Positions 4,070-41,578 of a DNA stretch of 64,000 nt are shown here, in pieces; positions within the stretch are counted from its first letter, which is position 1; every line of letters starts with the position of its first letter. Position numbers and translations under genes: made by a program. This stretch comes from a virus (lineage: Duplodnaviria; Caudoviricetes): positions 12,299 through 76,298 of IMG/VR virus record IMGVR_UViG_3300050581_000016; one strand, written 5' to 3'. Below the pieces are notes generated by a model. That model made no database searches, was not told the DNA's origin, and saw only the letters and a program-made list of their open reading frames with translations.

Positions 4070-4098
4070 TTGCAATCAGTCACTGCTTAGTATATTGT
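4070..4098 (+). promoter_or_regulatory. sigma70-type early promoter
   Basis: TTGCAA-17 nt-TATTGT upstream of the cobT-like gene. Confidence 0.65.
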
Positions 4099-4141
4099 GG
4101 GCTTGACGGTTAAGCAACGACCCAAACCAACGGAGGATACG

Positions 4142-9240: not shown

Positions 9241-9594
9241 ATGCCAAGATGGAATCTTCAGTGGAAGGTTGACAGCAGCTCAAGCCCTGGCAAGACCTAC
9301 ACGGTGTCGGAGGCTTTTGACGGGACATGGGCCTGTTCGTGCCCTGCCTGGACGCGCATGCGGAAAGAGTGCAAACACATCAAGCTGGTCAAGATGCGGC
9401 TTGCGACGGGAATCACCGACAAGGCCATAGTTCTGATAACGGAGAACGGCCATCCGGCCGCGCCTGACGTCATTGGCGCGGCCATCAATGAGGCCATAAT
9501 GAACAGAGAAGCCGAGAAGGTCGAGGAGCCCCCGAGGCAACTGAGCCTTCTTGAGCGGCTGGCGATTGAGGCTCCCTGGAGGATGAAACGATGA
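9241..9594 (+). CDS. SWIM zinc-finger protein
   Basis: YTV...WACSCPAW...CKHI SWIM pattern; ends LLERLAIEAPWRMKR. Confidence 0.75.
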   Translation: MPRWNLQWKVDSSSSPGKTYTVSEAFDGTWACSCPAWTRMRKECKHIKLVKMRLATGITDKAIVLITENGHPAAPDVIGAAINEAIMNREAEKVEEPPRQLSLLERLAIEAPWRMKR

Positions 9595-12500
9595 TCCATC
9601 TTCACGCCCATTCTCACTACAGCGTGCTTGACGGCCTGGGAACCGTTGACGAGATCATCGAGCGGTGCAAAGCCATCAAGGCGCCTGCCGTGGCGATCAC
9701 CGACCACGGAAGTATCAGCGTCCTGCCCGACCTGTTCAAGAAGGCCAAGGCGGCGGGCGTCAAGCCGATCATCGGGTGCGAGTTCTACCTGACCGACAAG
9801 GCCGAGGGAGAGAAGGCCGAGCGCCGCTATCACCTGACGGTGCTGGCCAAGACCTGGGCGGGCACCCAGAGCATCATCAAGGCCCTGACCCTGGCCAACA
9901 CCCAGTTCTACTACCGACCGCGACTCACCATCGAGCAGGCCCTGACGGCCTTCAGCGAGTGCGTGGTGATGAGCGCCTGCACCAGCGGCATCTTGATTAG
10001 GGACGACTACGCCGACCTCTACGACCGATTCAAGGCGGCCTACGGCGAGGACTTCTACCTTGAGGTGATGCCGCACGCCTTCCTTGACGAGGGCGCCAAC
10101 CATCAGGCCATCGTGAACACGAGGGCGCTGGGCCTCTGGCAGCACAAGAAGGCGAAGGTGGTCGCAACCAACGACGCGCACTACGTCAACCCGGACGACG
10201 CCTACCCTCACGAAGTCCTGCTGGCCATCCAGAGCGGCAAGACCTGGGACGACCCGAAGCGCTGGAGGTTCAACTGCGACGGCCTGCACATGAGGGACGT
10301 CGAGGAAATGGTGGCGGCCTTCGGGAAGAACTGCCCGTATCTGCCCCTTGACTTCGTGAAGGCGGCCATGCTGACAACCCTTGAGGTTGCCCAGAAGTGC
10401 AACGTCGAGCTGCCCGCCTTCCCGATCCACCTTCCCAAGGTGTCGGCAGAGGACGACAACAAGATGTTCGCAAAGCTCCTGGCCGATGGCTGGGAGGCGA
10501 AGCTGGCGCCGCACGGCGAGGAGCTTGACCTCGACGTTTACCGGAAGCGCCTGGTCTACGAGATCGGCGTCATCAACAAGCTCAAGTTCACGAGGTACTT
10601 CCTGATCGTCCAAGACATCATCCGGTGGGCGCGCGAGCAGGGAATAGCGGTCGGGCCTGGGCGCGGGTCGGCTGCCGGATCGCTGGTCTGCTACTTGCTC
10701 GACATCACCCAGCTCGACCCGATTGTCCACAAGCTCTACTTTGAGCGGTTCTTGAACCCTGAGCGTCTGGACTACCCGGACATCGACGTGGACTTTGGCG
10801 ACGACAGGCGGCAGGAGGTCTTTGACTACATCAGGGGCAAGTACGGGCACGACAAGACGGCTAACATCAACACCTTCGGGGTGCTGACCGTCAAGAGCGC
10901 CTTCAGGGATGTCGCCAGGGTGTTCGGCGTGAATATCCTGACCGTCAACGCCCTGAGCAAGCTGATCGACGACGAGGTATCCTTTGAGAAGGTTCCAGAG
11001 CTTGGGCGATTCGCCAAGTCAGAGGTCGGCGCCAAGGTTGTTGACCTCTCAAAGAAGCTCAGCGGGCGCATCCGACAGAACGGGGTGCATGCCGCTGGGA
11101 TCGTGTTGAGCGACCGGCCCCTCACCGAGGTCGCCGTGATCGAGCACCGCAAGGACGCTGACGTTATCAACTGGGACATGAAGAACTGCGAGGTCTTTGG
11201 CCTCATCAAGATCGACGTGCTGGGCCTGAGCACCTTGAGCATCATGGACATGGCGGCCAAGCTGGTGAAGCGTGACCTTGGCGAGGACATCGACTTCGTG
11301 GGCATCCCGCTGGACGACGAAAAGGCGATGGACGCCTTCTCCAAGGGAGACACGCTGGGCGTGTTCCAGTTTGAAGGAAACGGCCTCCAGGGGCTGCTGA
11401 AGGGCCTTCAAGCCCACGATTTCGAGGCCATAACGGCTGCGACCGCCCTGTTCCGGCCTGGGCCTTTGAATGCGGGCCTGTGCGAGCAGTACCTCCGCAT
11501 CTCCAAGGGCGATGAGCGGGAGTGGTATGACCACGAGCTGCTCAAGCCGATCCTGAGCGACACCAAGGGCGTCGTGGTCTACCAGGAGCAGGTCATGCGA
11601 ATCTTTGTTGACCTGGCGGGATTTACCTACCCCGAAGCAGACAAGATGAGGAAGATCATAGGCAAGAAGCTGGGCAAGGACGAGTTCGAGAAGCACCGGG
11701 ATCACTTCGTCAAGGGCGCCGAGGCCAAGGGCATCGACCCACGGCTGGCAGACGGCATCTTCACGAAGCTGGTCGAGTTTGCCGGATACGGCTTCAATCG
11801 CTGTATAGCGCATGACGAGAAGCTGTTCAGGTTGAGTCGATGCGACAGTAAGAGCGAGCCGCTAAGCATAGGAGAGATGTATCGCATAAAGAACAATTTG
11901 GCATATGCCAAGGCAACAGGGCATGAGGCGCTTCGTAAGAAGTATATGAGGCTTGGGTACGGTTATGCTCTTTCAATGAATGACGAGGGGCGTCTGGTCA
12001 AAAACAAGATCGTTGACATTTATCCATCTGGAGTGATGCCGGTCTATCGCTTGACCACTGAAGGAGGCGTGACGTTTAAATGTACCATGAATCATTCGAT
12101 TCCAACGACAGACGGCAAGAAGCTGCTTTCAGATATAGTTCCTGGTGACGCAGTATATGTGTCTAGTGGATACGAACATGTGAGATTCAATGAGTGCTTC
12201 TACAATAAAGACGAAACGCCTCTAGTCAACTCCGAGCTTGGCAAAATGGGCTTTCAAGAGCGAATGCTTGGTAATTCTGTACTTTATAATACGATAAGAG
12301 AGCAAAAGATTGCTTTGCTGGGGCAATGCGAGGAGTGCGGTGGCGCCCCATCCAGGTTTGAACTGCATCATGTTGGGCTTGACAGGTCGAAGAATGGTTA
12401 TGACGATCTGCGACTGTTGTGTCCGTCCTGTCATAAGATAAAGCACTATGAGGCTGGACGTACCAAGGCTTTTGAGAAGGGCTATCCAACAGTGACCGAC

Positions 12501-13655
12501 ACGGTGGCTGTCGTCGAGTATGTCGGTGAGGAAGAGTGTTTTGATGTGGAAATGACGGCGCCAAACCACAACTTTCTTACCGGAGGCGGGCTTGTGGTCT
12601 GCAACTCCCACGCATGTGCCTACTCCATGATAAGCCTCTGGACTCAATACCTCAAGACCCACTATCCGCTTCAGTTTATGGCGGGCAGCATGACATACAC
12701 CGACAAGAAAGAGCGCCTGCGACTTCTGGTCAGGGAGTGCGGGCGCCTGGGCATCGAGGTTAAACAGCCCGACATAAACAGGTCAACCAACGTCTTTGAA
12801 GTGGATGTGGCCGAGAATGCCATCACGGCGCCACTGAACCTGATAAAGGGCGTCGGCGGCGCGGCGGTAAAGGCGATTCTCAAGGCCCGCGAGGAACGGT
12901 GCTTCATCAGCATGGACGATTTCAGCGACCGGATCAACAAGCGGGCCTGTCATAAGGGCATCGTGGAAACTCTGACCAAGGCCGGGGCCTTCGAGAGCTT
13001 GGGCATCGGCGAGCGTGACCCAGAGCAGCGCATCAAGAACTTCGCCGAACTCATGCCGATCTTCAGCCTGCTTCCCAGCCTGACTCTGGGCGGCAGGATG
13101 ATGAAGGAAGAGATCGAGGCGATTCAGGGCCTGGTGATAGAGATGGACGAATGCAGGGCGGCAAACCTCCCGAAGCGCAACCTGATCCCACCGGCATTCA
13201 ACAGTAAGGGACAGATCATGGTGGTCAACAACCCTGTGAAGCACGAAACCAAGCACTTCCAGAGCGACGGCAGCAAGCACTTTCTCAAGACCATGAGGGG
13301 CCTGGGCTTCACCGAGGGAAACTTCTATTACACCTCCCCGATCAAGTGCAAGCACCTCAACTACGGCAAGGCCGACGCGGCCTGCCAGGATCGCTGCCTG
13401 GAGTTCCTGAAGCGCGAGATCGAGCTGGTCAAGCCCAAGCTCATTATCTGCTTTGCGAGCAGCATGACCGGCTTCTTCACGGGAGACCCCAAGGCCCAGG
13501 CGAGCACGCTTCGAGGTCAGGCCGTCTACAACAAGACCCTGGACACCTACATCGTCTTCAGCCCGTCACCCCAGTACGCCTACTATCAGGAGGGCGGTCA
13601 GGCGGCCTTCAAGGAGTCAATGGAGCTGGTCAGAAATATTTTTGCTGACAGCTAA
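9591..13655 (+). CDS. dnaE: DNA polymerase III alpha subunit (family C) with intein and C-terminal UDG-like domain
   Basis: PHP domain HLHAHSHYS/TDHG, GRGSAAGS, PDIDVD, GVHAAG, GYGFN...SHA. Confidence 0.95.
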   Translation: MIHLHAHSHYSVLDGLGTVDEIIERCKAIKAPAVAITDHGSISVLPDLFKKAKAAGVKPIIGCEFYLTDKAEGEKAERRYHLTVLAKTWAGTQSIIKALTLANTQFYYRPRLTIEQALTAFSECVVMSACTSGILIRDDYADLYDRFKAAYGEDFYLEVMPHAFLDEGANHQAIVNTRALGLWQHKKAKVVATNDAHYVNPDDAYPHEVLLAIQSGKTWDDPKRWRFNCDGLHMRDVEEMVAAFGKNCPYLPLDFVKAAMLTTLEVAQKCNVELPAFPIHLPKVSAEDDNKMFAKLLADGWEAKLAPHGEELDLDVYRKRLVYEIGVINKLKFTRYFLIVQDIIRWAREQGIAVGPGRGSAAGSLVCYLLDITQLDPIVHKLYFERFLNPERLDYPDIDVDFGDDRRQEVFDYIRGKYGHDKTANINTFGVLTVKSAFRDVARVFGVNILTVNALSKLIDDEVSFEKVPELGRFAKSEVGAKVVDLSKKLSGRIRQNGVHAAGIVLSDRPLTEVAVIEHRKDADVINWDMKNCEVFGLIKIDVLGLSTLSIMDMAAKLVKRDLGEDIDFVGIPLDDEKAMDAFSKGDTLGVFQFEGNGLQGLLKGLQAHDFEAITAATALFRPGPLNAGLCEQYLRISKGDEREWYDHELLKPILSDTKGVVVYQEQVMRIFVDLAGFTYPEADKMRKIIGKKLGKDEFEKHRDHFVKGAEAKGIDPRLADGIFTKLVEFAGYGFNRCIAHDEKLFRLSRCDSKSEPLSIGEMYRIKNNLAYAKATGHEALRKKYMRLGYGYALSMNDEGRLVKNKIVDIYPSGVMPVYRLTTEGGVTFKCTMNHSIPTTDGKKLLSDIVPGDAVYVSSGYEHVRFNECFYNKDETPLVNSELGKMGFQERMLGNSVLYNTIREQKIALLGQCEECGGAPSRFELHHVGLDRSKNGYDDLRLLCPSCHKIKHYEAGRTKAFEKGYPTVTDTVAVVEYVGEEECFDVEMTAPNHNFLTGGGLVVCNSHACAYSMISLWTQYLKTHYPLQFMAGSMTYTDKKERLRLLVRECGRLGIEVKQPDINRSTNVFEVDVAENAITAPLNLIKGVGGAAVKAILKAREERCFISMDDFSDRINKRACHKGIVETLTKAGAFESLGIGERDPEQRIKNFAELMPIFSLLPSLTLGGRMMKEEIEAIQGLVIEMDECRAANLPKRNLIPPAFNSKGQIMVVNNPVKHETKHFQSDGSKHFLKTMRGLGFTEGNFYYTSPIKCKHLNYGKADAACQDRCLEFLKREIELVKPKLIICFASSMTGFFTGDPKAQASTLRGQAVYNKTLDTYIVFSPSPQYAYYQEGGQAAFKESMELVRNIFADS
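11802..12605 (+). mobile_element. intein with HNH endonuclease (268 aa)
   Basis: Inserted in GYGFNR|SHA; starts CIAHD, ends FDVEMTAPNHNF...VVCN|S; CEEC..ELHH..N..LLCPSCH; lower GC. Confidence 0.9.
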
Positions 13656-28619: not shown

Positions 28620-29264
28620 ATGCACTTGAAAGACACCTTATCTGTTGAATTAATTGGACATACCGACCTCGACGTGGCCATTACGGCCATGCGAAAATGT
28701 TGGGCCTCCGAGGACAAGACCGACACTTGCTGGAGGATTCAGAATGACCAAGTGGTCATGATACTTGGCGATAACGACCGGCGTTTGATCCAGCGGATCA
28801 TCGAGAGCGACCATACCAGCACCGTTGAGCATATTGTCTATAATTTCGAGATCAAGGATATAAGCAGGGCTATTCTTCAGGAGCTGGCGCGTCATCGGAT
28901 TGCAAGTCTGTCTGTGCAAAGCACGCGATATGCTCTGAAGAAGCTCCTGAACGGGGAGGTGGAGCTGGAAAGCCTCCTGGTTCCGAGCGGCAACGACCAC
29001 ATTGACAGGCTCAATATCGAGATGCTGTACCGGCTGCGAAGCGTTGCCAGGAATTTCGATCTCCCAAACGACATCGCCAAGTACGGCATCCCGGAAGCCT
29101 TCAAGACGACGCTTATCTGGACGGCCAACGCACGAAGCCTTCGGAACTTCCTGAAGCTGCGGTCGTCAAAACGGGCGCACCCTGAGATCAGGCGCCTGGC
29201 CCATGCCGTCTATGGCGCCCTGCCTGAAGATCACCGTCTTATTTTTGACGGCTGCATGAATTAA
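28620..29264 (+). CDS. thyX: flavin-dependent thymidylate synthase
   Basis: H.S.VEH, SRAILQELARHRIASLSVQSTRY, NARSLRNFLKLR...A..EIR. Confidence 0.95.
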   Translation: MHLKDTLSVELIGHTDLDVAITAMRKCWASEDKTDTCWRIQNDQVVMILGDNDRRLIQRIIESDHTSTVEHIVYNFEIKDISRAILQELARHRIASLSVQSTRYALKKLLNGEVELESLLVPSGNDHIDRLNIEMLYRLRSVARNFDLPNDIAKYGIPEAFKTTLIWTANARSLRNFLKLRSSKRAHPEIRRLAHAVYGALPEDHRLIFDGCMN

Positions 29265-29289
29265 GCACTTAATAGAAAGGAGAGCCAGA

Positions 29290-29925
29290 ATGATGAAGAG
29301 CCATGATGTCGAGCGATTCCTCAATGAGAACGTCCCGTGCTTCCAGGGTGGAAGCGACCAGAAGCTCAGCGCTGATCTGAGGTTCGAGGAGGGAACCGGC
29401 CAGAAGCTCGAAGTCGATTGGGACTATCAGCACTGTGAACAGCCTCCACCAGCGCCATCCATCAAGGTCAAGGTCAACGGCCTCAATGTGGAGACGCTGG
29501 ACGACATGATCGTGAAGAAGATGCAGGCCGCAACGCACATCAGGGAGGACGCCTCTGAGGAAGAGAAGCGGGCGGCGGTCGAGGTCGGCGGGGCACGGTT
29601 CAACGAAGGCAAAGTCAGGTTCGACCTCGTGCCGCCTGACGCCCTCTGGGAGCTGGCCAAGGTCTACACCTTCGGGGCCAGGAAGTACAGGGACAGAAAC
29701 TGGGAGAAGGGCATGAGTTGGGGCATTTGCTTTGCGGCGGCCATGCGGCACCTGTGGAAGTGGTGGCGGGGCGAGCGGAACGATCCCGAATCGGGCATCC
29801 ACCATCTGGCCCATGCGGCCTGGAACTGCCTGTCTGCCCTGGCCTACGAGCTGCGGGAACAAACCGAGTTCGATGACCGCTACAAGCTGGGCCAGCCCAG
29901 GGGCTTCAGCCTGCCCCACGATTGA
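29290..29925 (+). CDS. DUF5664 dATP/dGTP diphosphohydrolase-domain protein
   Basis: GARFNEGKVRFDLVP...GARKY..RNWEKG...RHL..W..GE..DPESG..HLAHAA. Confidence 0.8.
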   Translation: MMKSHDVERFLNENVPCFQGGSDQKLSADLRFEEGTGQKLEVDWDYQHCEQPPPAPSIKVKVNGLNVETLDDMIVKKMQAATHIREDASEEEKRAAVEVGGARFNEGKVRFDLVPPDALWELAKVYTFGARKYRDRNWEKGMSWGICFAAAMRHLWKWWRGERNDPESGIHHLAHAAWNCLSALAYELREQTEFDDRYKLGQPRGFSLPHD

Positions 29926-30770: not shown

Positions 30771-31044
30771 CAGCGTGAGACGGTACGGCAAGAAGCCCGA
30801 CTACATCTGCAAGGTCAAAAAGGACTATCCAGGGAGCGGGAGCATCACGACGCTCTACGCCTACTTCAAGCAGGAACGGATACTCTGCGAGCTGGCGGTC
30901 TATTCCAGCAAGACGGGCGGGCGCCATGTTCCAGGCCGGTGGAAGGAGATGGCGGGCGTCGAGCCCGCCAGGTTCCTTGAGGTGATCGGAAACCACTCGG
31001 CTGACGGCAGCCTCAAGTATGCAGGCACGGTCAGCGACAACTGA
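30760..31044 (+). CDS. hypothetical protein
   Basis: Overlapping start; GGAG SD. Confidence 0.55.
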   Translation: MTSNSVRRYGKKPDYICKVKKDYPGSGSITTLYAYFKQERILCELAVYSSKTGGRHVPGRWKEMAGVEPARFLEVIGNHSADGSLKYAGTVSDN

Positions 31045-31227
31045 TCGGTTCTTCGAGCATAATTAAGCACTTAGTAGTTATTTTGCAAATGCCTAAAAAA
31101 GTTTGGAATATTTTCGGCTGGATGTGGTATAATAAGGATGTTTGGATCGAAAGAATGATTCATTGATTCCTCCTCCTCCCTTGGCCGGTGAGCATTCCTC
31201 ACCGGCCATTTCTTTTAAAGGCAAATG

Positions 31228-31881
31228 ATGGCTGACAAGATAAAGATCGAATGGGTTCCAAGACACGAGCTGACGGTCGCTGGGTACAACCCCAGGAAGA
31301 TGCAGCCGTCCACCCTGGAGCGCCTCAAGAAAGGCATCAAAGAGTTCGGGATCGTTGACCCGCTCATCATCAACCGAGACGGCACGGTGATCGGAGGCCA
31401 CCAGAGGCTCCAGGCTGCCGAAGAGTGCGGCTTCGCCGAGTTTCCCTGTGTGCGCCTTGACCTTGACGCCAAGCGTGAGAAGGCCCTCAACCTGGCCCTG
31501 AACAAACTGGCGGGAGAGTGGGACTACACGAAGCTGAGCGCACTGCTCCTTGAATTCGAGGGCGAACCAGGTTTCGACATCGAGCTGACCGGCTTTGACG
31601 GCCTTGAGGCCATTGAGATGTCAACCCTGGGCAATGCCGACCTGGGAGGTCTTGGAGTGGCCGGGGGCCTGCCTGACGCGAGCGACCTGGGCAGCCCTAT
31701 CGAGGGCGCCGGATCGACCGGCGACTCGAAAACCAAGAAAACGGGCCTTCAATATGTCATCGTCTTCAGCGACGAGGGCGAGCAGCGCGAGTGGCTCGAC
31801 TACCTTGAGAGCCTCAAGGAGCGCTATCCAGACGAGGAAACGGTCAGCGCCCGCATCATTCGGGACATCACAGAGCGATAG
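31228..31881 (+). CDS. ParB/Srx N-terminal domain protein
   Basis: YNPRK, IKEFGIVDPLIIN, GGHQRLQAA, LNLALNKLAGEWD. Confidence 0.85.
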   Translation: MADKIKIEWVPRHELTVAGYNPRKMQPSTLERLKKGIKEFGIVDPLIINRDGTVIGGHQRLQAAEECGFAEFPCVRLDLDAKREKALNLALNKLAGEWDYTKLSALLLEFEGEPGFDIELTGFDGLEAIEMSTLGNADLGGLGVAGGLPDASDLGSPIEGAGSTGDSKTKKTGLQYVIVFSDEGEQREWLDYLESLKERYPDEETVSARIIRDITER

Positions 31882-31890
31882 GTGACTCCG

Positions 31891-33045
31891 ATGGCGACAG
31901 TCAGCCGATATTACAAGACGACCAACGTGTTCGAGGAGGCCCTGGAGCGCATCCGGTGGGTCTTCGACGAGTTCAAGAACGTGGTCGTGAACTATTCGGG
32001 CGGGAAGGACAGCACCATTATCCTTGAGATGGCCCTCATGGTCGCCAAGGAGAAGGGCAGGCTTCCACTGCCGGTCTTCTTCATCGACCAGGAGATCGAG
32101 TGGAACACGACCATCGACATGGTGCGCGACGTCATGTACCGGCCAGAAGTCAAGCCCTACTGGCTCCAGGTTCCGTTCAAGATCGAGAACGCAACGTCCT
32201 TCGAGGACGGATGGTTGTACGCCTGGAGGCCGGGAGACGAGTGGATTCGCCCGAAAGACCCCATCGCCATTCATGAGAAGACGTTCCCAGGCGAAGAGTT
32301 CCATGACCTCTTCGAGGGCTGGGGCAACGCCATGTACGGCGGCACCGACCTGGCGAGGCTCACCGGAGTCCGCGGTGAGGAGTCAAGGAACAGGCTGATG
32401 GGCCTGACCTGCTATGCCTGCTACAAGTGGGTCACTTGGGGAAGGAAGCACTCTGGGCGCGAGAACCACATCTCGTTCTCCCCTATCTATGATTGGTACT
32501 ACACGGACGTCTGGAAGGCCATTCACGAGCACGGCTGGAAGTACAACGCGCTCTACGACATCCAGTACCAGCGTGGCGTCCCGGTCAGGAACATGCGGGT
32601 TTCAAACCTCCATCACGAAACAGCCGTGAAGTCCCTGGAGATGCTCCAGGAGATCGACCATGACCTCTACAACAAGGTTACGAGGCGGCTCAACGGGATC
32701 GACGCCTACACCAAGATTTCCGAAATCTTCATCGTCAAGAAGCTGCCGTTCATGTTCGCATCATGGCGGGAGTACCGGGACTTCTTGTTCGAGAAGATCG
32801 TGACCGATGAGAGCGCCGCTCAGACCTTCCAGAAGCACTGGAAGCCGCTGGAGGACGTGATCGACTTCATTGGCGATCCGCACTTCACCGAAGCGCTCAT
32901 CAAGTCCGAGATCAACGCCATGCTGGTCAACGACCGTGCGGGCACGAAGCTCAACAACCTGTCCGGTTGGATCGACGGCGAGAAGAAGAAGGCCGAAGCA
33001 AGAAAGGGCGTCAAGTATGTCGATAGAAAATCACCCCGTACATAA
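31891..33045 (+). CDS. ibrA: PAPS-reductase family protein (IbrA/YbdN-like)
   Basis: NVFEEALERIRWVFDEF, PP-loop YSGGKDS, FIDQE, GVRGEES..R, PIYDW...DVW, YN.LYD, MRVS. Confidence 0.8.
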   Translation: MATVSRYYKTTNVFEEALERIRWVFDEFKNVVVNYSGGKDSTIILEMALMVAKEKGRLPLPVFFIDQEIEWNTTIDMVRDVMYRPEVKPYWLQVPFKIENATSFEDGWLYAWRPGDEWIRPKDPIAIHEKTFPGEEFHDLFEGWGNAMYGGTDLARLTGVRGEESRNRLMGLTCYACYKWVTWGRKHSGRENHISFSPIYDWYYTDVWKAIHEHGWKYNALYDIQYQRGVPVRNMRVSNLHHETAVKSLEMLQEIDHDLYNKVTRRLNGIDAYTKISEIFIVKKLPFMFASWREYRDFLFEKIVTDESAAQTFQKHWKPLEDVIDFIGDPHFTEALIKSEINAMLVNDRAGTKLNNLSGWIDGEKKKAEARKGVKYVDRKSPRT

Positions 33046-34393
33046 CGTCCAATGGGTTCCGCTGGAGAAGGTCGAGGCGAACAGCTACAACCCCAACTCC
33101 GTGGCCATCAACGAGATGAAGCTGCTCTACACCTCGATCAAGCACGATGGCTACTGCGTCGAGGAGTCTACACCTGTTTTAAGGGCCGACCTAACCTGGG
33201 TTCCAGCAGGTGAATTATCTGTTGGAGACAAGATCATTGCGTTTGATGAGTATGCGACTGGGAACGGGGACGGCAGGAAACAGCGTCGCTATCGCACGGC
33301 TTCAGTCGTGTCAAACTCCATTGAAGAGAGTGACCTGGTAAGAGTTGAAACGGATCGTGGTGAGCTGCTTACGACTCCTGACCACCCTTTCTTAGCAAAG
33401 CGCTGTTACGGCAGAGGGTATCACATGGCCGATTGGATCATGGCCTCTGACTTGCGACCCGATGACATCGTGATCTATTTGATGGCTCCATGGGAAGTTG
33501 ACCGATCATATGATGCTGGATGGCTCTCTGGCTTTCTTGATGGAGAGGGGACGCTGGCGAACAACCAGAATAAAAGTCGGAAGCCTACTGTTCGACTGGC
33601 TGGGTATCAGCGCCCAGGCACTACAGCCGACCACATGGTTGCAGAAATGGCCAAGCGAGCGCTGACGAAGGTTTTTACTTTAGACCGGACGGGCCATGTC
33701 AAATGGAGCAGCATGGTTATGGCGCGGGTTGACCGCCTCACCGAAGTGATGCGGCTTTTAGGCTCGGTTCGCCCAGAGCGCCTGATTGAAAAAGGCGGTG
33801 TTTTCTGGGAAGGGTGTGCCCTGTCTTCCAAGCTTAAGGATGAGACGAAGGCAGTAGTTGCGTCTGTTAGCCAAGAACGGCGCGGCAACATTGCACGGTT
33901 GTCTACAACTACAAAGACCTATATTGCCAATGGGTTTGCGGTTCATAACACTCAGCCCATCGTGACGGTCTACGACGAGGCGCAGGACAAGTACATTATC
34001 GTGGATGGATTCCATCGGCATCTGGTCATGAAGCACAACCGGGACATCTACGAGGACACGGGCGGCCTGCTGCCGGTGGTGGTGCTCAATAAGGACATCA
34101 ACGACCGCATGGCCTCCACCGTCAGGCACAACAGGGCCAGAGGGCGGCATGCCGTTGAGGGCATGGCGACCATCGTGTTCTCGATGCTCGACAACGGCTG
34201 GGCCGACATCGACATCTGCAAGGAGCTGGGCATGGAGCACGAGGAGCTGATCCGGCTCAAGCACATCACCGGCTTCTCCAAGCTCTTTGAGGACGTCGAG
34301 TATCGGCGGGCGTATGAAACCAAGCGACAGGTCAAATTGAGGCTCGAATGGGAAGAAAAACATTCGTCGTCATCTCAGTCTCCGACAGAGTAG
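33017..34393 (+). CDS. ibrB: ParB-like protein (IbrB/YbdM-like) with intein
   Basis: HPVHNVQWVP..ANSYNPN, SIKHDGY|TQPIV, IVDGFHR, MASTVRHNRARG. Confidence 0.85.
   Translation: MSIENHPVHNVQWVPLEKVEANSYNPNSVAINEMKLLYTSIKHDGYCVEESTPVLRADLTWVPAGELSVGDKIIAFDEYATGNGDGRKQRRYRTASVVSNSIEESDLVRVETDRGELLTTPDHPFLAKRCYGRGYHMADWIMASDLRPDDIVIYLMAPWEVDRSYDAGWLSGFLDGEGTLANNQNKSRKPTVRLAGYQRPGTTADHMVAEMAKRALTKVFTLDRTGHVKWSSMVMARVDRLTEVMRLLGSVRPERLIEKGGVFWEGCALSSKLKDETKAVVASVSQERRGNIARLSTTTKTYIANGFAVHNTQPIVTVYDEAQDKYIIVDGFHRHLVMKHNRDIYEDTGGLLPVVVLNKDINDRMASTVRHNRARGRHAVEGMATIVFSMLDNGWADIDICKELGMEHEELIRLKHITGFSKLFEDVEYRRAYETKRQVKLRLEWEEKHSSSSQSPTE
33155..33949 (+). mobile_element. intein with LAGLIDADG endonuclease (265 aa)
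   Basis: Starts CVEESTPV; TPDHPF block B; WLSGFLDGEG; ends YIANGFAVHN|T. Confidence 0.9.
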
Positions 34394-35154
34394 GCGAGCT
34401 GAACGCCCTGGTGGGGCAGATCGCAGCCGACTCGCGCTTTGACTCTTATGACGTCAACCTCTACTTCCAAGACCCGCAAGGCGTGGCTGGGAAGATCGCA
34501 CACCGTGACCGCTATGAGCGCGTCATCGTCGTGCCCGAGCTGGCAGGCTGTCACGGGGCCAGAGTCCTTCTCTTGAGGGAGCTGGACGGGGCCGGATACG
34601 ACGCCTACGTCAACCTGGACGACGACATGGAGCTGTGCGGGCACACCGACTACGAGCCTGCGGTCGCCTTCTCAGGCTATCCAGGGATCGGGTTTGTCAT
34701 GACGAACTGGGCCAAGACCATGCCCCTTCTGGAAAAGAAGGTTCCGGCCATGCTCAGGCATCGGGCCTCCGGCATGGGCCGGTTCAAGCGTCAGATCATG
34801 CTCTACAACGGTGGAGGCATGGTCTACCGGGACAGGGTCGCCGACCTCATGCGTCAGCTCGAACCCGTCAAGACGGCCTTTGATTGTGCCTGGCCGATCA
34901 CTTCTTATGTCAACGGGTTCGAGAACTACCGGGATCAGGGCAGCCTTGCCGTCCACAAGGTCTGCGGGACGGGCGGCATGAACGCCTTCATGGCAGCGAC
35001 AAAGCTGCATGTGATGTGCGAAGAGTGGCTGGAGTTCCTGCCTGCAAAGAAGCAGGACGGAAGCTGCACCTCCGTCTTGATACCGCTGGACGCCCAGGTG
35101 AAGCAGGCTGCCAAAGAGGCTCACGCCAAGGCGAGAAGGGAAATGGGACTATGA
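34348..35154 (+). CDS. GT-A fold glycosyltransferase-like protein
   Basis: N-terminal VVISV..R strand and a DxD motif in YVNLDDD. Confidence 0.6.
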   Translation: MGRKTFVVISVSDRVGELNALVGQIAADSRFDSYDVNLYFQDPQGVAGKIAHRDRYERVIVVPELAGCHGARVLLLRELDGAGYDAYVNLDDDMELCGHTDYEPAVAFSGYPGIGFVMTNWAKTMPLLEKKVPAMLRHRASGMGRFKRQIMLYNGGGMVYRDRVADLMRQLEPVKTAFDCAWPITSYVNGFENYRDQGSLAVHKVCGTGGMNAFMAATKLHVMCEEWLEFLPAKKQDGSCTSVLIPLDAQVKQAAKEAHAKARREMGL

Positions 35155-35693
35155 ACAGGGTCGAGATGAACCGCAAGCAAATGCTTGAGTACATTGCCAG
35201 GACTCTAGGCATGACGGGCGGCGTGATCGCCGAGGTCGGAGTGCTACGGGGCACCTTCGCAAAGAGCCTGCAAGACGCCCTGGCGCCCAGCAGAATGTAC
35301 CTGGTCGATCCCTGGCAGGCGTTCCCGCCCAGCGAGTTCTCCGACTACACCAGCTATTCCCAGGCGAAGTGGGATGCGATAGCGGCCTCGGTCGCCAGCC
35401 GTTTCCCGCCTCCTGTGAATGTGATCTTGCGTATGACATCGGAGGAGGCCGCTCAGCACGTCCCAGACGGCTCCCTCGATATGGTCTACCTGGACGGGAA
35501 CCATGCTTACGAGCATGTGGCCCAAGACTTGCGGCTCTGGTTCCAAAAGGTCAGACCTGGCGGGTTCATCGCTGGACACGACATAGACCGGAAAAGCGTC
35601 GGAAGGGCCGTGGGTGAGTTCCTGACCAGCATCAGCGCCTCGGCGCACATGACCAACGAGAAGTCCTGCTGCTCATACTTCTGGCAGAGATAA
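35151..35693 (+). CDS. class I SAM-dependent O-methyltransferase (Methyltransf_24-like)
   Basis: EVGV.RG, LVDPW, DMVYLDGNH.YE.V..DL, VRPGG.I.GHD. Confidence 0.85.
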   Translation: MNRVEMNRKQMLEYIARTLGMTGGVIAEVGVLRGTFAKSLQDALAPSRMYLVDPWQAFPPSEFSDYTSYSQAKWDAIAASVASRFPPPVNVILRMTSEEAAQHVPDGSLDMVYLDGNHAYEHVAQDLRLWFQKVRPGGFIAGHDIDRKSVGRAVGEFLTSISASAHMTNEKSCCSYFWQR

Positions 35694-35702
35694 GGAACAG
35701 CC

Positions 35703-36275
35703 ATGCAAATCGTCGATGTCAAGATCGAACAGATACGCCCCTACTGGCGAAATCCTCGCAAGAACGAGAAGGCCATCCAGGCCGTCAAGGAGTCCATAGA
35801 GCGCTACGGCTTCAACGTGCCCATCGTGCTGGACATGGCAGGCGTCATCATTGCCGGTCACACCCGATACAAGGCGGCCCTGGAGCTTGGATGGAAGTCG
35901 ATCCCGTGCATCTACTCCGACATGGACGAGAAGAAGGCCAAGGAGTACCGGATCGCCGACAACAAGACCGGCGAGCTGGCCCAGTGGGACATGGCGAGCT
36001 TGAAGCTGGAGATGCGCGAGCTTGAGTTTGACGGCTCCCTCCCAGGCTTTGACGAGGCCGAGATGAGTTCATTCCTGAGCGACATCTCGTTTGGCAACGC
36101 GAGCCTTCCGTCGCTCGATGGAAGCGACAAGGATCAGGAGCGGTTCGACCGCAAAGAGGCTGAGCTGAACTCCAAGTTCAGCGATCATAGCCAGAAGATG
36201 CAGGACAACTACGTCACGGTCAACTGTCCTCATTGCGGCAAGGAGTTCGTCCTTGACAAGAACGACATGGGGTAG
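35703..36275 (+). CDS. ParB/Srx N-terminal domain protein
   Basis: IRPYWRNPRKN, SIERYGFNVPIV, IIAGHTRYKAA, YRIADNK; C-terminal CPHC. Confidence 0.85.
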   Translation: MQIVDVKIEQIRPYWRNPRKNEKAIQAVKESIERYGFNVPIVLDMAGVIIAGHTRYKAALELGWKSIPCIYSDMDEKKAKEYRIADNKTGELAQWDMASLKLEMRELEFDGSLPGFDEAEMSSFLSDISFGNASLPSLDGSDKDQERFDRKEAELNSKFSDHSQKMQDNYVTVNCPHCGKEFVLDKNDMG

Positions 36276-36357
36276 AGTCACGCTCAATAAGTGTTGTGAT
36301 CTTTCACGAGGTGTGATATAAATACCTCAACCATTCACCCCAACGAAAGGATCGCAC

Positions 36358-36669
36358 ATGATAGAAATTGAGCCGATTCAGTTTGACGAGGAAAGTGCAG
36401 TCAGGGCCAGGGCATTCATCGAGGCCGTCAGATGGCAGGTCGCCAAGACCTACGAGAAGACGGCCCCTCACGAGTACACCGTCAGAAAATGGTGTCCCGA
36501 TCTTGAGAAGGAGTACGCCTGGTTTGACATGCTCATCCGCGATGCCGGTGTCAAGAAGAAGTTCTGGAAGACCCAGTACAGCTACTTGTACCTGGACGGC
36601 TATCGTTATTGGACGGGCTGGCCGCCGATCCTCATCAATAGATGCCCAGCAGACCAACCCTGGCAGTAA
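36358..36669 (+). CDS. conserved hypothetical protein
   Basis: WQVAKTY...PHEY...Y.YLYLDGYRYW. Confidence 0.7.
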   Translation: MIEIEPIQFDEESAVRARAFIEAVRWQVAKTYEKTAPHEYTVRKWCPDLEKEYAWFDMLIRDAGVKKKFWKTQYSYLYLDGYRYWTGWPPILINRCPADQPWQ

Positions 36670-36718
36670 AGAATACAACGATTCTTAAATGCAAGCCTTT
36701 TGCGGCAGAGCGCCTGTG

Positions 36719-36876
36719 AACCCTTACTGATGGCCGATTTGAGCGTCAGCGCATTCAGATTCCGTTTAGGTGTCAGTACATAGGGGGCAACTTCAAGTGC
36801 GCTCTAAACGGCAAATAGGCCGCCCAGAAGCGGGGTGAAAGTCTGGCACGATTCTTGGCTCGGCACGAGGCTTGCA
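36719..36876 (+). promoter_or_regulatory. conserved regulatory module copy B, with tandem sigma54-like boxes
   Basis: 31 nt identical to copy A; TGGCACG-ATTC-TTGG (36844) and CGGCACG-AGGC-TTGCA (36861). Confidence 0.7.
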
Positions 36877-36923
36877 AAGGTTCTAAGTGTCTAAAATATT
36901 TTGCAATCCCCTTCACTTTTTGT

Positions 36924-36952
36924 TTGACAAAGAAGTAAGTCCTTAGTATTCT
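36924..36952 (+). promoter_or_regulatory. sigma70-type promoter with operator
   Basis: TTGACA-17 nt containing TAAGTCCTTA-TATTCT. Confidence 0.7.
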
Positions 36953-37004
36953 GGGTGCAACGGTTAAGGAACAACACCAACCCCAGATACGAAGGAGCAC
37001 GACC

Positions 37005-37583
37005 ATGACTTACGGCGAATACGCAAAGGCCCAGGCGAAATTGGCGAAGATCAACCACGACCTCGATGAGATGTGGGAGAACGCCGAAACTGAAGAAGCC
37101 CGCAAAGAGTGCATGGTGCTTGAGAAAGAGGCCGAGGAACTCCAGGCCATAGTCGCCGAGGGCGCCGAGCAGTACAAGGCGACCGAGGACAACGACGAGG
37201 ACATGGAAGACGACGAACTGCTCAAGACCATCGAGAAGATCATGGGCGGCAGCACCGCGAGCACGATGGTTGAGAAGGAAGTGGCCCTCGCCGACAGTGC
37301 GACGGCCAAGGCCCTGAAAGAGGGCGCGACGGTAGTTGCCGACGAACCGGCCAAGAAGGACGAAGAGGCCGTCAAGAAGGCCCGCAAGCCCAGGGAGAAG
37401 AAGGAGCCCGAACCGGAAGTCACTGAGCTTGGAGGATTCAAGCTGGGCCAGAAGGCGGGCTGGAAGGAAGGCGGGCAACTCTTTGAAGGGATCGTTACAA
37501 AGATCGGCAAGTGCTACCTGGGGATCACCATCGAGAGTGGAAAACACCAGAAGATCAAGCCCTGCTACACGATAGCCCTGTAA
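37005..37583 (+). CDS. hypothetical acidic protein with C-terminal SH3-like beta domain
   Basis: GGAG SD; KLGQKAGW...FEGIVTKIGK. Confidence 0.7.
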   Translation: MTYGEYAKAQAKLAKINHDLDEMWENAETEEARKECMVLEKEAEELQAIVAEGAEQYKATEDNDEDMEDDELLKTIEKIMGGSTASTMVEKEVALADSATAKALKEGATVVADEPAKKDEEAVKKARKPREKKEPEPEVTELGGFKLGQKAGWKEGGQLFEGIVTKIGKCYLGITIESGKHQKIKPCYTIAL

Positions 37584-39116: not shown

Positions 39117-39785
39117 ATGGGTCGGGAACCCAAGAAGCCCAAGGAAAGGAAGGTTCCGAGGAACCTGAGCGCCGATACCTGGGTCGAGATACAGGCCCAG
39201 TGGGAAGCGGGAGTGCCTGGATCAGAGCTGGCGAGGAAGTACGGCTTGACGCCGTCTGCCATCACCCACAGAGCCAAGAAGGACGGCTGGCTCAGAGGGG
39301 CCTCCATCAAGACCAGGGCCATCGAAGAGGCCCGTCAGGAGGTCAAAGAGAAGCTCAAGGACACCTACAAAGACCTGGTCGAGAAGGCCAACGAGCAGCA
39401 CATGAAACTCGCCAACTACGGCGAGCAGTTCGGGATCATCCTCTGGAAAGAGCTTGAAATCAACATGAAGGCGCTCCAGAAGCAGCGCCTGGACATGGGT
39501 CACACTGACGAGAACCCCATCTGCCTGCATGACTTCGGCAAGATCAACGGCCAGTACAAGTCGATCTGGGAAACCCTGGAGAGTGTCGCCAGGTTCAAGC
39601 GCGACGTCCTGAAGATGGGCGAGCACAACTCGTGGATGAGCGACGAAGAGAACCAGGACTCCATCCAGCGGCTCAACGAAATCTTTGAGGAGGGGCGCAA
39701 GCGGTATGAGGAGGTGAGCGGGGATGCTGACAAGGAGGCCACGACAGCGGGCGAAGCTGTTCACCCCGATAATCCACCCAAATAG
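39117..39785 (+). CDS. terS: terminase small subunit
   Basis: N-terminal HTH (ELARKYGLTPSAITHRAKKDGW) directly upstream of terL. Confidence 0.75.
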   Translation: MGREPKKPKERKVPRNLSADTWVEIQAQWEAGVPGSELARKYGLTPSAITHRAKKDGWLRGASIKTRAIEEARQEVKEKLKDTYKDLVEKANEQHMKLANYGEQFGIILWKELEINMKALQKQRLDMGHTDENPICLHDFGKINGQYKSIWETLESVARFKRDVLKMGEHNSWMSDEENQDSIQRLNEIFEEGRKRYEEVSGDADKEATTAGEAVHPDNPPK

Positions 39786-41061
39786 CAAGTCTGAGGAATC
39801 ACTCTATCGCAGCACGAGGCGCCTCAACATCTGGGAGGGCAGCGTGCGGTCGGGCAAGACCATTTCCAGCATCCTTCGCTGGGTCAAATGGGTCGTGACC
39901 GAAGCCCCTGACGAGGGCGAGCTGCTCATGACCGGCAAGACCTACAAGACGATGGAGCGCAACGTCCTCAACCCGATCATCGACATGCTGGGAAGCCGGA
40001 ACGCCTGGTACAACCGAGGCACGGGCGAGTTCTTCATCCAGGGATGCAACCGGCCCATCAACATCATCGGGGCAAACGACGAGCGCTCCCAGGAGAAGAT
40101 TCGAGGCGCGACCATTTGCGGGGCCTACGGCGATGAGCTGACGCTCTGGCCCGAGTCCTTCTTCAAGATGCTGCTCTCCAGGTTGAGCGTCAAGGGCGCC
40201 AAGTTCTTCGGGACGACGAACCCCGACAGCCCGTATCATTGGCTCAAGAAGGAGTACATCAACCGGCAGCACGAGCTGGACATGGCCGTCTTCCACTTCA
40301 TTCTGGAAGACAACCCCTTCCTTGACCCAGACTACGTCTCGTCGCTCAAGAAAGAGTACACGGGCCTCTGGTACAAGCGCTTCATCGACGGCCTCTGGGT
40401 GCTGGCCGAGGGCGCCGTCTACGATATGTGGGACGACGACCTTCACACCCTGGACGTGCGGGCCATGCTCGAAGCGGACGTCAAGGGCGGCAGGCGAGGA
40501 CAGCCCAGGTTCAGGCGATACTTCGTGGCCATTGACTACGGCACGAACAACCCCTGTACGTTTGGCCTCTACGGCTTTGACAAGGGCGTCGTCACGATGG
40601 GCGGCAAGGCGATCATCCCGAAGGTCTACCTTGAGAGGGAATACTACTGGGACAGCAACGTCACGAGCAGACAGAAGACGGACGCCCAGTACGGCGACGA
40701 CTTCGTGAAGTGGCTGGGCGGCATCCGGCCCGAGGCCATCTACGTTGACCCCAGCGCCTTGAGTTTCATATCAGAGCTGCGGCACCGGGGCTACCGAGTG
40801 ACCGAGGCCAAGAACGACGTTCTGGACGGCATCCGGTTTGTCGGGAAGCTGCTGAGCGCCGGGAAGTTCCTGATCGACAAGTCCTGCGAACACACGACCG
40901 GCGAGTTCAGCGCCTACGTCTGGGACACCAAGGCCCAGGCACGGGGCGAGGACAAGCCCATCAAAGAACACGATCACGCGATGGATCGGAACAGGTACGG
41001 GCTTTACACCCACTTCTTCAGAGAGAATCCGACCCTGATCCACGGCTTCAACTTCAGGTGA
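39724..41061 (+). CDS. terL: terminase large subunit (PBSX/SPP1-like)
   Basis: EGSVRSGKT, YGDELT, TTNP, DNPFL, IDYGT.NP, YVDPSA, DHAMD. Confidence 0.95.
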   Translation: MLTRRPRQRAKLFTPIIHPNSKSEESLYRSTRRLNIWEGSVRSGKTISSILRWVKWVVTEAPDEGELLMTGKTYKTMERNVLNPIIDMLGSRNAWYNRGTGEFFIQGCNRPINIIGANDERSQEKIRGATICGAYGDELTLWPESFFKMLLSRLSVKGAKFFGTTNPDSPYHWLKKEYINRQHELDMAVFHFILEDNPFLDPDYVSSLKKEYTGLWYKRFIDGLWVLAEGAVYDMWDDDLHTLDVRAMLEADVKGGRRGQPRFRRYFVAIDYGTNNPCTFGLYGFDKGVVTMGGKAIIPKVYLEREYYWDSNVTSRQKTDAQYGDDFVKWLGGIRPEAIYVDPSALSFISELRHRGYRVTEAKNDVLDGIRFVGKLLSAGKFLIDKSCEHTTGEFSAYVWDTKAQARGEDKPIKEHDHAMDRNRYGLYTHFFRENPTLIHGFNFR

Positions 41062-41154
41062 TTCCCACTTTTGCCATCAAAACAGGGCGTGATTCCCACT
41101 TTCATTTGTTCACCCTCGGTAAAGCGGGAACGGAATTTTGAAAATTCCCACTTT
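41058..41154 (+). repeat. three direct repeats of ATTCCCACTTT
   Basis: GTGATTCCCACTTT at 41058 and 41089; ATTCCCACTTT at 41144. Confidence 0.7.
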
Positions 41155-41176
41155 GGGCCAATTTTGGAGGCAACCA

Positions 41177-41578
41177 ATGAATGAAGTTCCCGTCAAGCGA
41201 CACCGGCTTATCCTTGAGGGCTACGGATGCTCTGACGTGATCGTCCAGGACGTGCATGACTTCCTGATCGAGCTGACCGTGGCGCTCGACATGCGAATCC
41301 TCGTTCCGCCGATGATCGTCCAGGTGCCCATCGTGAAGCCCGCTCCAGGCATGGAGACGGAGGACATCGGCATCAGCGGGCAACTCATCTGGATGGAGTC
41401 TGGCTGCCAGGTGCATCAGTGGACGAAGCATGGGTTCGTCGCAGTGGACATCTTCAGTTGCAAAGCGTTCGCCCAGGCCAAGGCCGAAGACGTCTTCGAC
41501 AGATTTTTCCAGCCGATTACGCTTCGCAGTTGCGTCCCTGTCGTCCAACCCTATACGGCGGGCCTGGACATGCATTGA
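41177..41578 (+). CDS. speD: S-adenosylmethionine decarboxylase proenzyme-like protein
   Basis: H.LILE.YGC, G.SG..IWMES (pyruvoyl cleavage site), VH.W...F..VDIFSC.F. Confidence 0.7.
   Translation: MNEVPVKRHRLILEGYGCSDVIVQDVHDFLIELTVALDMRILVPPMIVQVPIVKPAPGMETEDIGISGQLIWMESGCQVHQWTKHGFVAVDIFSCKAFAQAKAEDVFDRFFQPITLRSCVPVVQPYTAGLDMH

Follow-up and report, generated by a model that had tools for sequence, protein, structure and literature searches.

The stretch of DNA analysed here (the window, 64,000 nt) comprises bases 12299-76298 of the linear 76.3-kb IMG/VR virus record IMGVR_UViG_3300050581_000016, a Caudoviricetes genome estimated by CheckV to be ~67% complete, and nearly all genes of the window lie on the + strand. 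Between 31225 and 36669 it carries a cassette of seven genes (Table 1) encoding, in this order, a ParB N-domain protein (ParB1), an IbrA/YbdN-like PP-loop enzyme (IbrA), an IbrB-like ParB/Srx-fold protein (IbrB), a glycosyltransferase of the GT-A fold (GT), a methyltransferase (MTase) of the Methyltransf_24 family (MT24), a second ParB N-domain protein (ParB2) and a small conserved domain. A first-pass annotation made from the sequence alone had proposed this order and these families for a candidate DNA hypermodification operon; both were borne out, with all seven genes on the + strand and the conserved small protein confirmed as the last of them by alignments. The tight coupling that it described was likewise found, neighbouring genes overlapping or lying at most 82 nt apart, and the IbrB gene overlaps the stop codon of the IbrA gene. 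The statement that the cassette lies just before the packaging genes is correct in that the terminase genes follow downstream, but it is only approximate in the window because 2.4 kb and three unknown open reading frames separate the two; in many relatives the cassette directly adjoins the terminase genes. The co-occurrence of GT and MT24 in one cassette, the presence of an intein in IbrB and a hairpin 5' of the cassette are new features here.

Table 1. Features of the cassette and of the downstream packaging region, in window coordinates.
Feature	Position	Strand	Evidence
TGgTATAAT extended -10-like element, no -35 partner	31125-31133	+	Read directly from the sequence
Terminator-like hairpin, 11 bp (8 GC), plus T-run	31182-31218	+	Scan; 7 nt 5' of the first gene
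ParB1, ParB N-domain protein	31225-31881	+	PF02195, 29.6 bits (cut-off 26.3)
IbrA/YbdN-like PP-loop enzyme (PAPS_reduct + DUF3440)	31882-33045	+	phrog_2302, E 6.5e-76
IbrB-like ParB/Srx-fold protein precursor	33017-34393	+	phrog_2159, E 1e-63
Intein in IbrB, 264 aa	33158-33949	+	Intein_splicing and intein_Nterm matches
GT-A-fold protein, 268 aa	34348-35154	+	Predicted structure and invariant DDD
Methyltransf_24/TylF-like S-adenosylmethionine (SAM) methyltransferase	35151-35693	+	PF13578, 65.8 bits (cut-off 26.3); TylF, 23 bits
ParB2, second MTase-type ParB N-domain protein	35703-36275	+	PF02195, 37.7 bits (cut-off 26.3); phrog_620, 5e-53
Small conserved domain, 103 aa, core cassette member	36358-36669	+	Alignments
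TerS, small terminase subunit	39117-39785	+	phrog_1206
TerL, large terminase subunit	39724-41061	+	phrog_2
S-adenosylmethionine decarboxylase, possible accessory	41138-41578	+	PF02675, 46.2 bits; just 3' of TerL

Regarding the PP-loop enzyme, IbrA consists of a 3'-phosphoadenosine 5'-phosphosulfate (PAPS) reductase domain (PF01507, 60.5 bits, cut-off 22.5) followed by PF11922/DUF3440 (26.7 bits, cut-off 25), and its PP-loop, S39-G-G-K-D-S-T45, is invariant across 11 diverse homologues, while no invariant or near-invariant cysteine was present in the homologue alignment. The DndC model TIGR03183 scored 23.9 bits against a cut-off of 290.4 and the CysH model also stayed far under its cut-off; the closest solved structures are flavin adenine dinucleotide (FAD) synthase, CysD and PAPS reductases, and the closest relatives in defence systems are DndC and BrxP (weak PADLOC matches). 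These features fit a predicted adenylyl-transferring ATPase or ATP pyrophosphatase, and a reductase or a Dnd-type sulfur transferase does not fit. A Dnd cysteine desulfurase had not been seen in the window at first pass, and PF00266 is absent from the whole 76-kb record at E<=0.1, in a record that is ~67% complete and for a function that a host enzyme could supply. Because IbrA lacks an invariant cysteine, the record lacks a desulfurase and the DndC score is far too low, sulfur chemistry is disfavoured; the possible sulfur-linked or Dnd-like step of the earlier proposal is thus not upheld, and Dnd-like phosphorothioation and a sulfur-linked sugar were rejected as candidates.

The family of IbrB was assigned through phrog_2159, its link to PF02195 consisting only of a weak match between that model and a homologue without the intein (E 0.048). 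Its two exteins (33017-33157 and 33950-34393) contain the motifs DGFHR and RHNRARGxH and were aligned with the IbrB proteins of phages Phlyer, Wheelbite and FCL-2. The intervening intein has C48 as Cys1, a C-terminal H-N311 with T312 at the +1 position, and one LAGLIDADG-like block; its intein_Nterm match scored 23.5 bits against a cut-off of 24.5. The insertion point is the conserved DGY/TQP site, between DGY and TQP and shortly before the DGFHR motif. The 264-residue insert is missing from the five aligned IbrB orthologues, the matches of Microbacterium phage DNA to the IbrB gene leave out the intein stretch, and no other IbrB gene among the ~130 loci examined has an intein. This element was overlooked by the first-pass annotation and distinguishes this copy of the cassette. 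Inteins prefer conserved sites in important proteins, and the intein therefore suggests that IbrB is important to the phage.

The two further ParB proteins are of a different type. ParB1 matches phrog_620 (1.2e-38) and phrog_498 (4.6e-37), and its positions 8-134 match the PADLOC MTase_II model PDLC03229 (E 1.2e-28); ParB2, which has a CxxC pair at its C-terminus, matches PADLOC MTase_II at E 1.7e-25. Both are of the kind fused to phage DNA methyltransferases, the matches covering the N-terminal 130 residues of a type II DNA MTase model. A separate N6_N4 DNA methylase that might pair with such orphan ParB domains was considered and rejected, as none is present in the record. PADLOC assigned none of IbrB, GT, MT24 and the small protein to a defence system.

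The small domain belongs to a family of 3,472 representatives (50% clustering, E<=0.001) for which there is no Pfam model, characterized by the motifs W.FAKTM..PH.Y..R, YKYWTM and INR, in this order. Regarding its fold, Foldseek against the PDB returned nothing at E<=0.001, a PDB profile search and the ESM Atlas returned nothing, and the best hit of a wide VIA-align search was non-significant (Z 4.3; Ku core, SPOC). The domain occurs solo or fused to MT25 and other class I SAM methyltransferases, SET, AdoMet_dc (L038), HTH_17 or DUF433, and it looks like an adaptor recruiting SAM-using enzymes to the target of the cassette. About one-third of its top matches (P0058-P0207) are fusions of 210-290 aa with class I methyltransferases, and tandem copies of the domain also occur among the matches.

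Searches of Pfam, PHROG and NCBIfam gave no sequence-family match for the GT of the window, and a precomputed PF00535 match was present in 3 of 57 clusters of GT homologues. The assignment to the GT-A fold, with a DxD motif, had nevertheless been made at first pass, and it appears right because a confident AlphaFold model (predicted local distance difference test, pLDDT, 95.9) matches only GT-A enzymes and because the DDD motif (D91, D92, D93) is invariant in 31 sequences. The PDB matches listed by Foldseek are GT-A enzymes (probability 1.0, query TM-score (TMq) 0.45-0.61, E ~1e-7), and those in BFVD are likewise GT-A enzymes, including TET-associated GTs.

Regarding the linkage of this GT to IbrAB, a pattern scan of IMG/VR yielded 20 loci, of which all had IbrB, 19 had IbrA, 19 had ParB and 17 had the small protein; the lone locus without IbrA is cut off within IbrB. 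A separate scan of JGI, TARA and ENA metagenome contigs yielded 32 GT loci, with IbrA and/or IbrB beside the GT in 26 of them (each at least 1.96 kb), the remaining six, without IbrA or IbrB, being fragments of 1.0-2.8 kb. A search of 185,579 species, each represented by one genome, did not return any member of the GT family. Within the cassette its position differs among loci (GT-IbrA-IbrB, IbrA-GT-IbrB or IbrA-IbrB-ParB-ParB-GT), and on an IbrA tree from a quick IQ-TREE maximum-likelihood run the GT label requires at least eight changes, five of them forced by well-supported branches. The IbrA proteins closest to that of the window come from loci without a GT, and the TerL proteins of GT-bearing phages share ~22% identity with TerL of the window. 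Because the GT is confined to the cassette, reordered within it and patchy on the tree, the distribution argues for functional coupling of a mobile accessory to IbrAB rather than for inherited synteny.

The linkage of MT24 is narrower. Among 82 viral loci of the Methyltransf_24 family (80 kept of 378 confirmed viral-contig loci, plus two others), three lie in IbrAB cassettes; these are the three closest relatives of the window enzyme (45-46% identity), and one of them is without a GT. Judged from these sequences, the linkage to the cassette appears restricted to the closest subclade. Finding the GT and the MTase unlinked to ibrAB in other genomes had been named in advance as an outcome that would speak against the proposal; for the GT the opposite was seen (linked in 20/20 and 26/26 loci), whereas the MTase is linked only in that subclade. 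A search for the accessory families in four cultured-phage loci gave no matches, and the methyltransferase gp8 of Wheelbite is unrelated to MT24.

A reverse survey seeded with the IbrA alignment gave 76 further viral loci, of which 73 had an adjacent IbrB, 58 an MTase-type ParB and 34 the small domain. Typically the genes follow the order ParB, small domain, variable slot, IbrA, IbrB, (ParB), a helix-turn-helix (HTH) protein and TerL. The slot contained a GNAT protein in 12 loci, GT-A-like proteins of the families c4/c26 in 16, N6_N4-DNA-MTase-like proteins (c6/c28) in 16, a second PAPS-reductase paralogue in seven, AdoMet_dc in two and MT24 in one. The IbrA and IbrB pair was found in Flavobacterium, Mycobacterium, Arthrobacter, Microbacterium and Streptococcus phages, and the cultured phages Phlyer (gp1-gp6), Wheelbite (gp2-gp10) and FCL-2 have the cassette at their terminase genes; Microbacterium phage Hendrix is another cultured carrier. 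The cassette thus has a fixed core, consisting of IbrA, its obligate partner IbrB, one or two further ParB N-domain proteins and the small domain, and a variable slot for tailoring or donor-supplying enzymes. A fixed core with a variable slot of group-transfer enzymes is the layout expected for a modification pathway with tailoring steps.

Some occupants of these cassettes merit separate mention. The c4 and c26 proteins are 180-245 aa long and align weakly with the N-terminal half of the GT, including (E/D)DD (L036:6180-6854, L033:1203-1853 and relatives); hhalign relates the two families to each other with a probability of 98.8% and c4 to the GT with a probability of 69%, with the DxD aligned, and they may be minimal GT-A enzymes. 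The AdoMet decarboxylase family (c18 = phrog_3125) lies within the IbrAB cassettes of related phages (L002, L003, L010, L056 and L059). Other IbrAB cassettes (L011:9885-10397, L018:7444-7971 and L019:9885-10397) contain a gene for a pyruvoyl-dependent arginine decarboxylase (PF01862, E 1.8e-27), a sign that agmatine or polyamines are involved in the chemistry of some versions. In Mycobacterium phage Phlyer (L101, 1-5236) the run of ParB, IbrA and IbrB leads straight into an intein-containing TerL, with no annotated TerS.

Taken together, the cassette is read here, with somewhat more belief than doubt, as a late-expressed set of genes whose products most likely act between replication and packaging to modify nucleic acid, which is probably the DNA of the phage itself. 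DNA is favoured as the target because ParB1 and ParB2 match the N-terminal module of type II DNA MTases, because DNA-MTase-like proteins occupy the slot and fusions join the small domain to HTH_17 and DUF433, both of them DNA-binding domains, and because the cassette adjoins packaging genes in uncultured as well as cultured phages. Published precedents, in which a ParB-like protein acts with a thymine dioxygenase, GT-A enzymes act on DNA and DpdB acts with DpdA, are a further reason. In such a pathway the ParB-fold proteins would load on or open double-stranded DNA, presenting it to the enzymes of the cassette; IbrA would adenylylate an oxygen of the DNA (a base carbonyl or a phosphate) at the cost of ATP and so create or activate an acceptor, onto which the GT-A enzyme would transfer a sugar from a nucleotide-sugar; the methyltransferase would then methylate this sugar or adduct, and the resulting modified DNA would resist host nucleases. 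We infer DNA as the substrate and a methyl-glycosyl group as the product. The fuller version, offered tentatively as a possibility, is that IbrA starts an undescribed, sulfur-free DNA chemistry in which adenylylation on ParB clamps is followed by addition of a sugar by the GT-A enzyme and methylation by MT24, while sister cassettes attach acetylated, methylated or amine-derived groups instead.

Several known systems share parts of this arrangement. IbrA/IbrB of E. coli ECOR-9, YbdN/YbdM of K-12 and the phage pairs of phrog_2302 and phrog_2159 have in common an IbrA of the PAPS_reduct and DUF3440 type beside an IbrB of the DGFHR type, to which the window adds two ParB proteins, a dedicated GT-A enzyme, MT24, the small domain and the IbrB intein. 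The Dnd, Ssp and type 4 BREX systems (DndC and BrxP with a DndB-type partner) likewise combine a PAPS-reductase-fold PP-loop enzyme with a ParB-superfamily protein and are thought to act on DNA (background in PMC12839542). In contrast to those systems, IbrA of the window has no invariant cysteine or Fe-S motif, a desulfurase is lacking, the DndC score is far below the cut-off, and the accessories are sugar and methyl transferases (acetyl transferases in sister cassettes) and not sulfur carriers.

Regarding base hypermodification, a phage thymine dioxygenase requires a ParB-like protein without a DNA-binding domain for its activity on double-stranded DNA, and the neighbourhoods of 5mYOX enzymes contain GTs (31%), ParBs (27%) and terminases (19%) as well as O-methyltransferases and GNATs (PMC13229309); phage GT-A enzymes glycosylate 5-hydroxymethylcytosine (5hmC) in DNA (bioRxiv 10.1101/2023.12.21.572611). 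IbrAB cassettes are like these 5mYOX (TET/JBP) clusters in having ParB-like proteins, GT-A enzymes, O-methyltransferases, GNATs and nearby terminases, whereas the record has neither TET/JBP nor a C5-methyltransferase, the presumed initiator is a PP-loop ATPase and the GT belongs to a distinct sequence family. In 7-deazaguanine DNA modification the ParB-like ATPase DpdB partners DpdA (PMC12839542). The likeness to Dpd lies in a ParB-like NTPase aiding a DNA-modifying enzyme; the catalytic partner differs, and neither a TGT-like DpdA nor preQ0 genes were seen. A further PAPS-reductase-family protein in a nucleic-acid-directed system is the cysH-like accessory of type IV-B CRISPR-Cas; no cas genes were noticed in the window, in which no search aimed at them was made.

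A number of observations weigh against DNA modification. The closest solved folds of the GT act on proteins, lipids or polysaccharides, and in BFVD viral DNA glycosyltransferases score no higher for it than generic GT2 enzymes do; the bulk of MT24-family members are located outside IbrAB cassettes, and a fusion that joins the small domain to a SET domain hints that protein lysines are the target. Supplying polyamines for DNA condensation could be the whole role of the AdoMet and arginine decarboxylases. The sole published phenotype of E. coli IbrAB is reportedly transcriptional activation of prophage genes, a result said to be that of Sandt et al. 2002. Finally, TET/JBP (PF12851) is absent from the whole record at E<=1, a model that divergent 5mYOX enzymes can escape, and no ThyA-type hydroxymethylase is present in the 76-kb record (~67% complete), the thymidylate synthase being ThyX. 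No base hydroxylase had been seen in the window at first pass, and glycosylation based on 5hmC or 5-hydroxymethyluracil (5hmU) was rejected as a candidate on the findings for the record.

The region 5' of the cassette bears on an alternative reading of the core. The TG-TATAAT promoter proposed near 31125 corresponds to a real TGgTATAAT motif, but a consensus scan calls no sigma-70 promoter there and finds no -35 element. The motif is separated from the first ATG by the strong hairpin with its T-run, which starts ~50 nt after it and lies in a segment (31138-31222) folding at -28.1 kcal/mol (z -2.97); the hairpin is possibly an attenuator or an antitermination target. The arrangement is reminiscent of lambda PR'-tR', and by this analogy the cassette and the packaging genes may be under antitermination control. 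The core could accordingly be a DNA-bound regulatory or packaging-initiation device with ParB/KorB/VirB-like clamps, serving as a late-gene switch or a mark for terminase, with the GT, MT24 and the other slot genes as cargo. In many phages the cassette lies directly 5' of TerS/TerL, and it is also found between TerL and portal; these placements are in keeping with such a role, as are the lack of an annotated TerS between IbrB and TerL in Phlyer and the promoter-then-terminator layout, which suggests that the cassette opens an antitermination-controlled late unit. Such a device is nonetheless considered unlikely: it leaves unexplained the obligate PP-loop ATP pyrophosphatase partner with its invariant SGGKDS, the confinement of the GT family to the cassette and a slot filled nearly wholly by group-transfer enzymes.

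It is improbable, to a greater degree, that the GT-A enzyme and MT24 work apart from IbrA and IbrB, with virion proteins or glycans of the host envelope as their targets. The best solved matches of the GT are polypeptide GalNAc-transferases, hyaluronan synthase, GnT-I, GlfT2 and ArnC, TylF-type MTases methylate sugars, the relatives of MT24 lie mostly outside IbrAB cassettes, and virion glycosylation by phage GTs and O-methyltransferases is known in mycobacteriophages and chloroviruses, all of which would suit this role. A capsid GT of PBCV-1 is also mentioned in 10.1101/2023.12.21.572611. The GT family, however, is never found outside the IbrAB cassette, yet moves within it; the gene is placed at the junction of replication and packaging, away from the structural genes, and in the confident, fully globular model of the protein neither a signal peptide nor a membrane segment is evident.

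A small molecule or the nucleotide or polyamine pool as target, with IbrA adenylylating a metabolite and the other enzymes tailoring it for counter-defence or DNA condensation, is very doubtful: the adenylylation of small oxyanions by FAD synthase and CysD (the nearest solved relatives of IbrA), the AdoMet decarboxylase and pyruvoyl arginine decarboxylase within or beside the cassette and the common action of GNAT and MT enzymes on amines and sugars would agree with it, but it hardly accounts for the presence in each cassette of three ParB-fold proteins, of which two are DNA-MTase-associated, or for the HTH fusions of the small domain.

Hundreds of phages, as well as E. coli, have annotated IbrA/IbrB pairs, yet the literature searched yielded neither a study of what phage IbrAB does nor a biochemical function for such pairs. 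If the cassette does modify phage DNA in the way proposed, IbrAB cassettes would make up a large and diversifying family of pathways for the hypermodification of phage DNA, a first biochemical function would be at hand for IbrA/IbrB and YbdN/YbdM, and hypermodification would have a new route initiated by a PP-loop enzyme and not by a hydroxymethylase or dioxygenase. New DNA modifications bear on phage-host arms races, on the evasion of restriction and CRISPR in laboratory systems and on enzyme tools. The core is carried by tractable cultured phages, namely Phlyer (Mycobacterium smegmatis), Wheelbite (Arthrobacter) and FCL-2 (Flavobacterium).

Regarding the remainder of the window, an Rfam scan of 30900-37100 gave zero matches, and the genes 5' of the cassette encode DnaB, a primase, a DnaE-type polymerase, SbcCD-like proteins, PhoH, ThyX and a dGTP_diPhyd_N protein. 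The last two lie together at 28620-29925, ThyX being followed by the protein with the N-terminal domain of dATP/dGTP diphosphohydrolases (PF18909; 29290-29925). This protein prompted consideration of a 2-aminoadenine (Z) genome, which is not indicated because the record contains no PurZ-type adenylosuccinate synthase. In the early region of the window a CobT-like protein of 691 aa with a VWA domain is encoded at 4097-6172. The DnaE-type polymerase (PHP, Pol III alpha, HHH_6; 9591-13655) contains a second intein, with an HNH domain, at residues ~800-1005, and a domain of the uracil-DNA-glycosylase superfamily at its C-terminus (residues 1219-1343).

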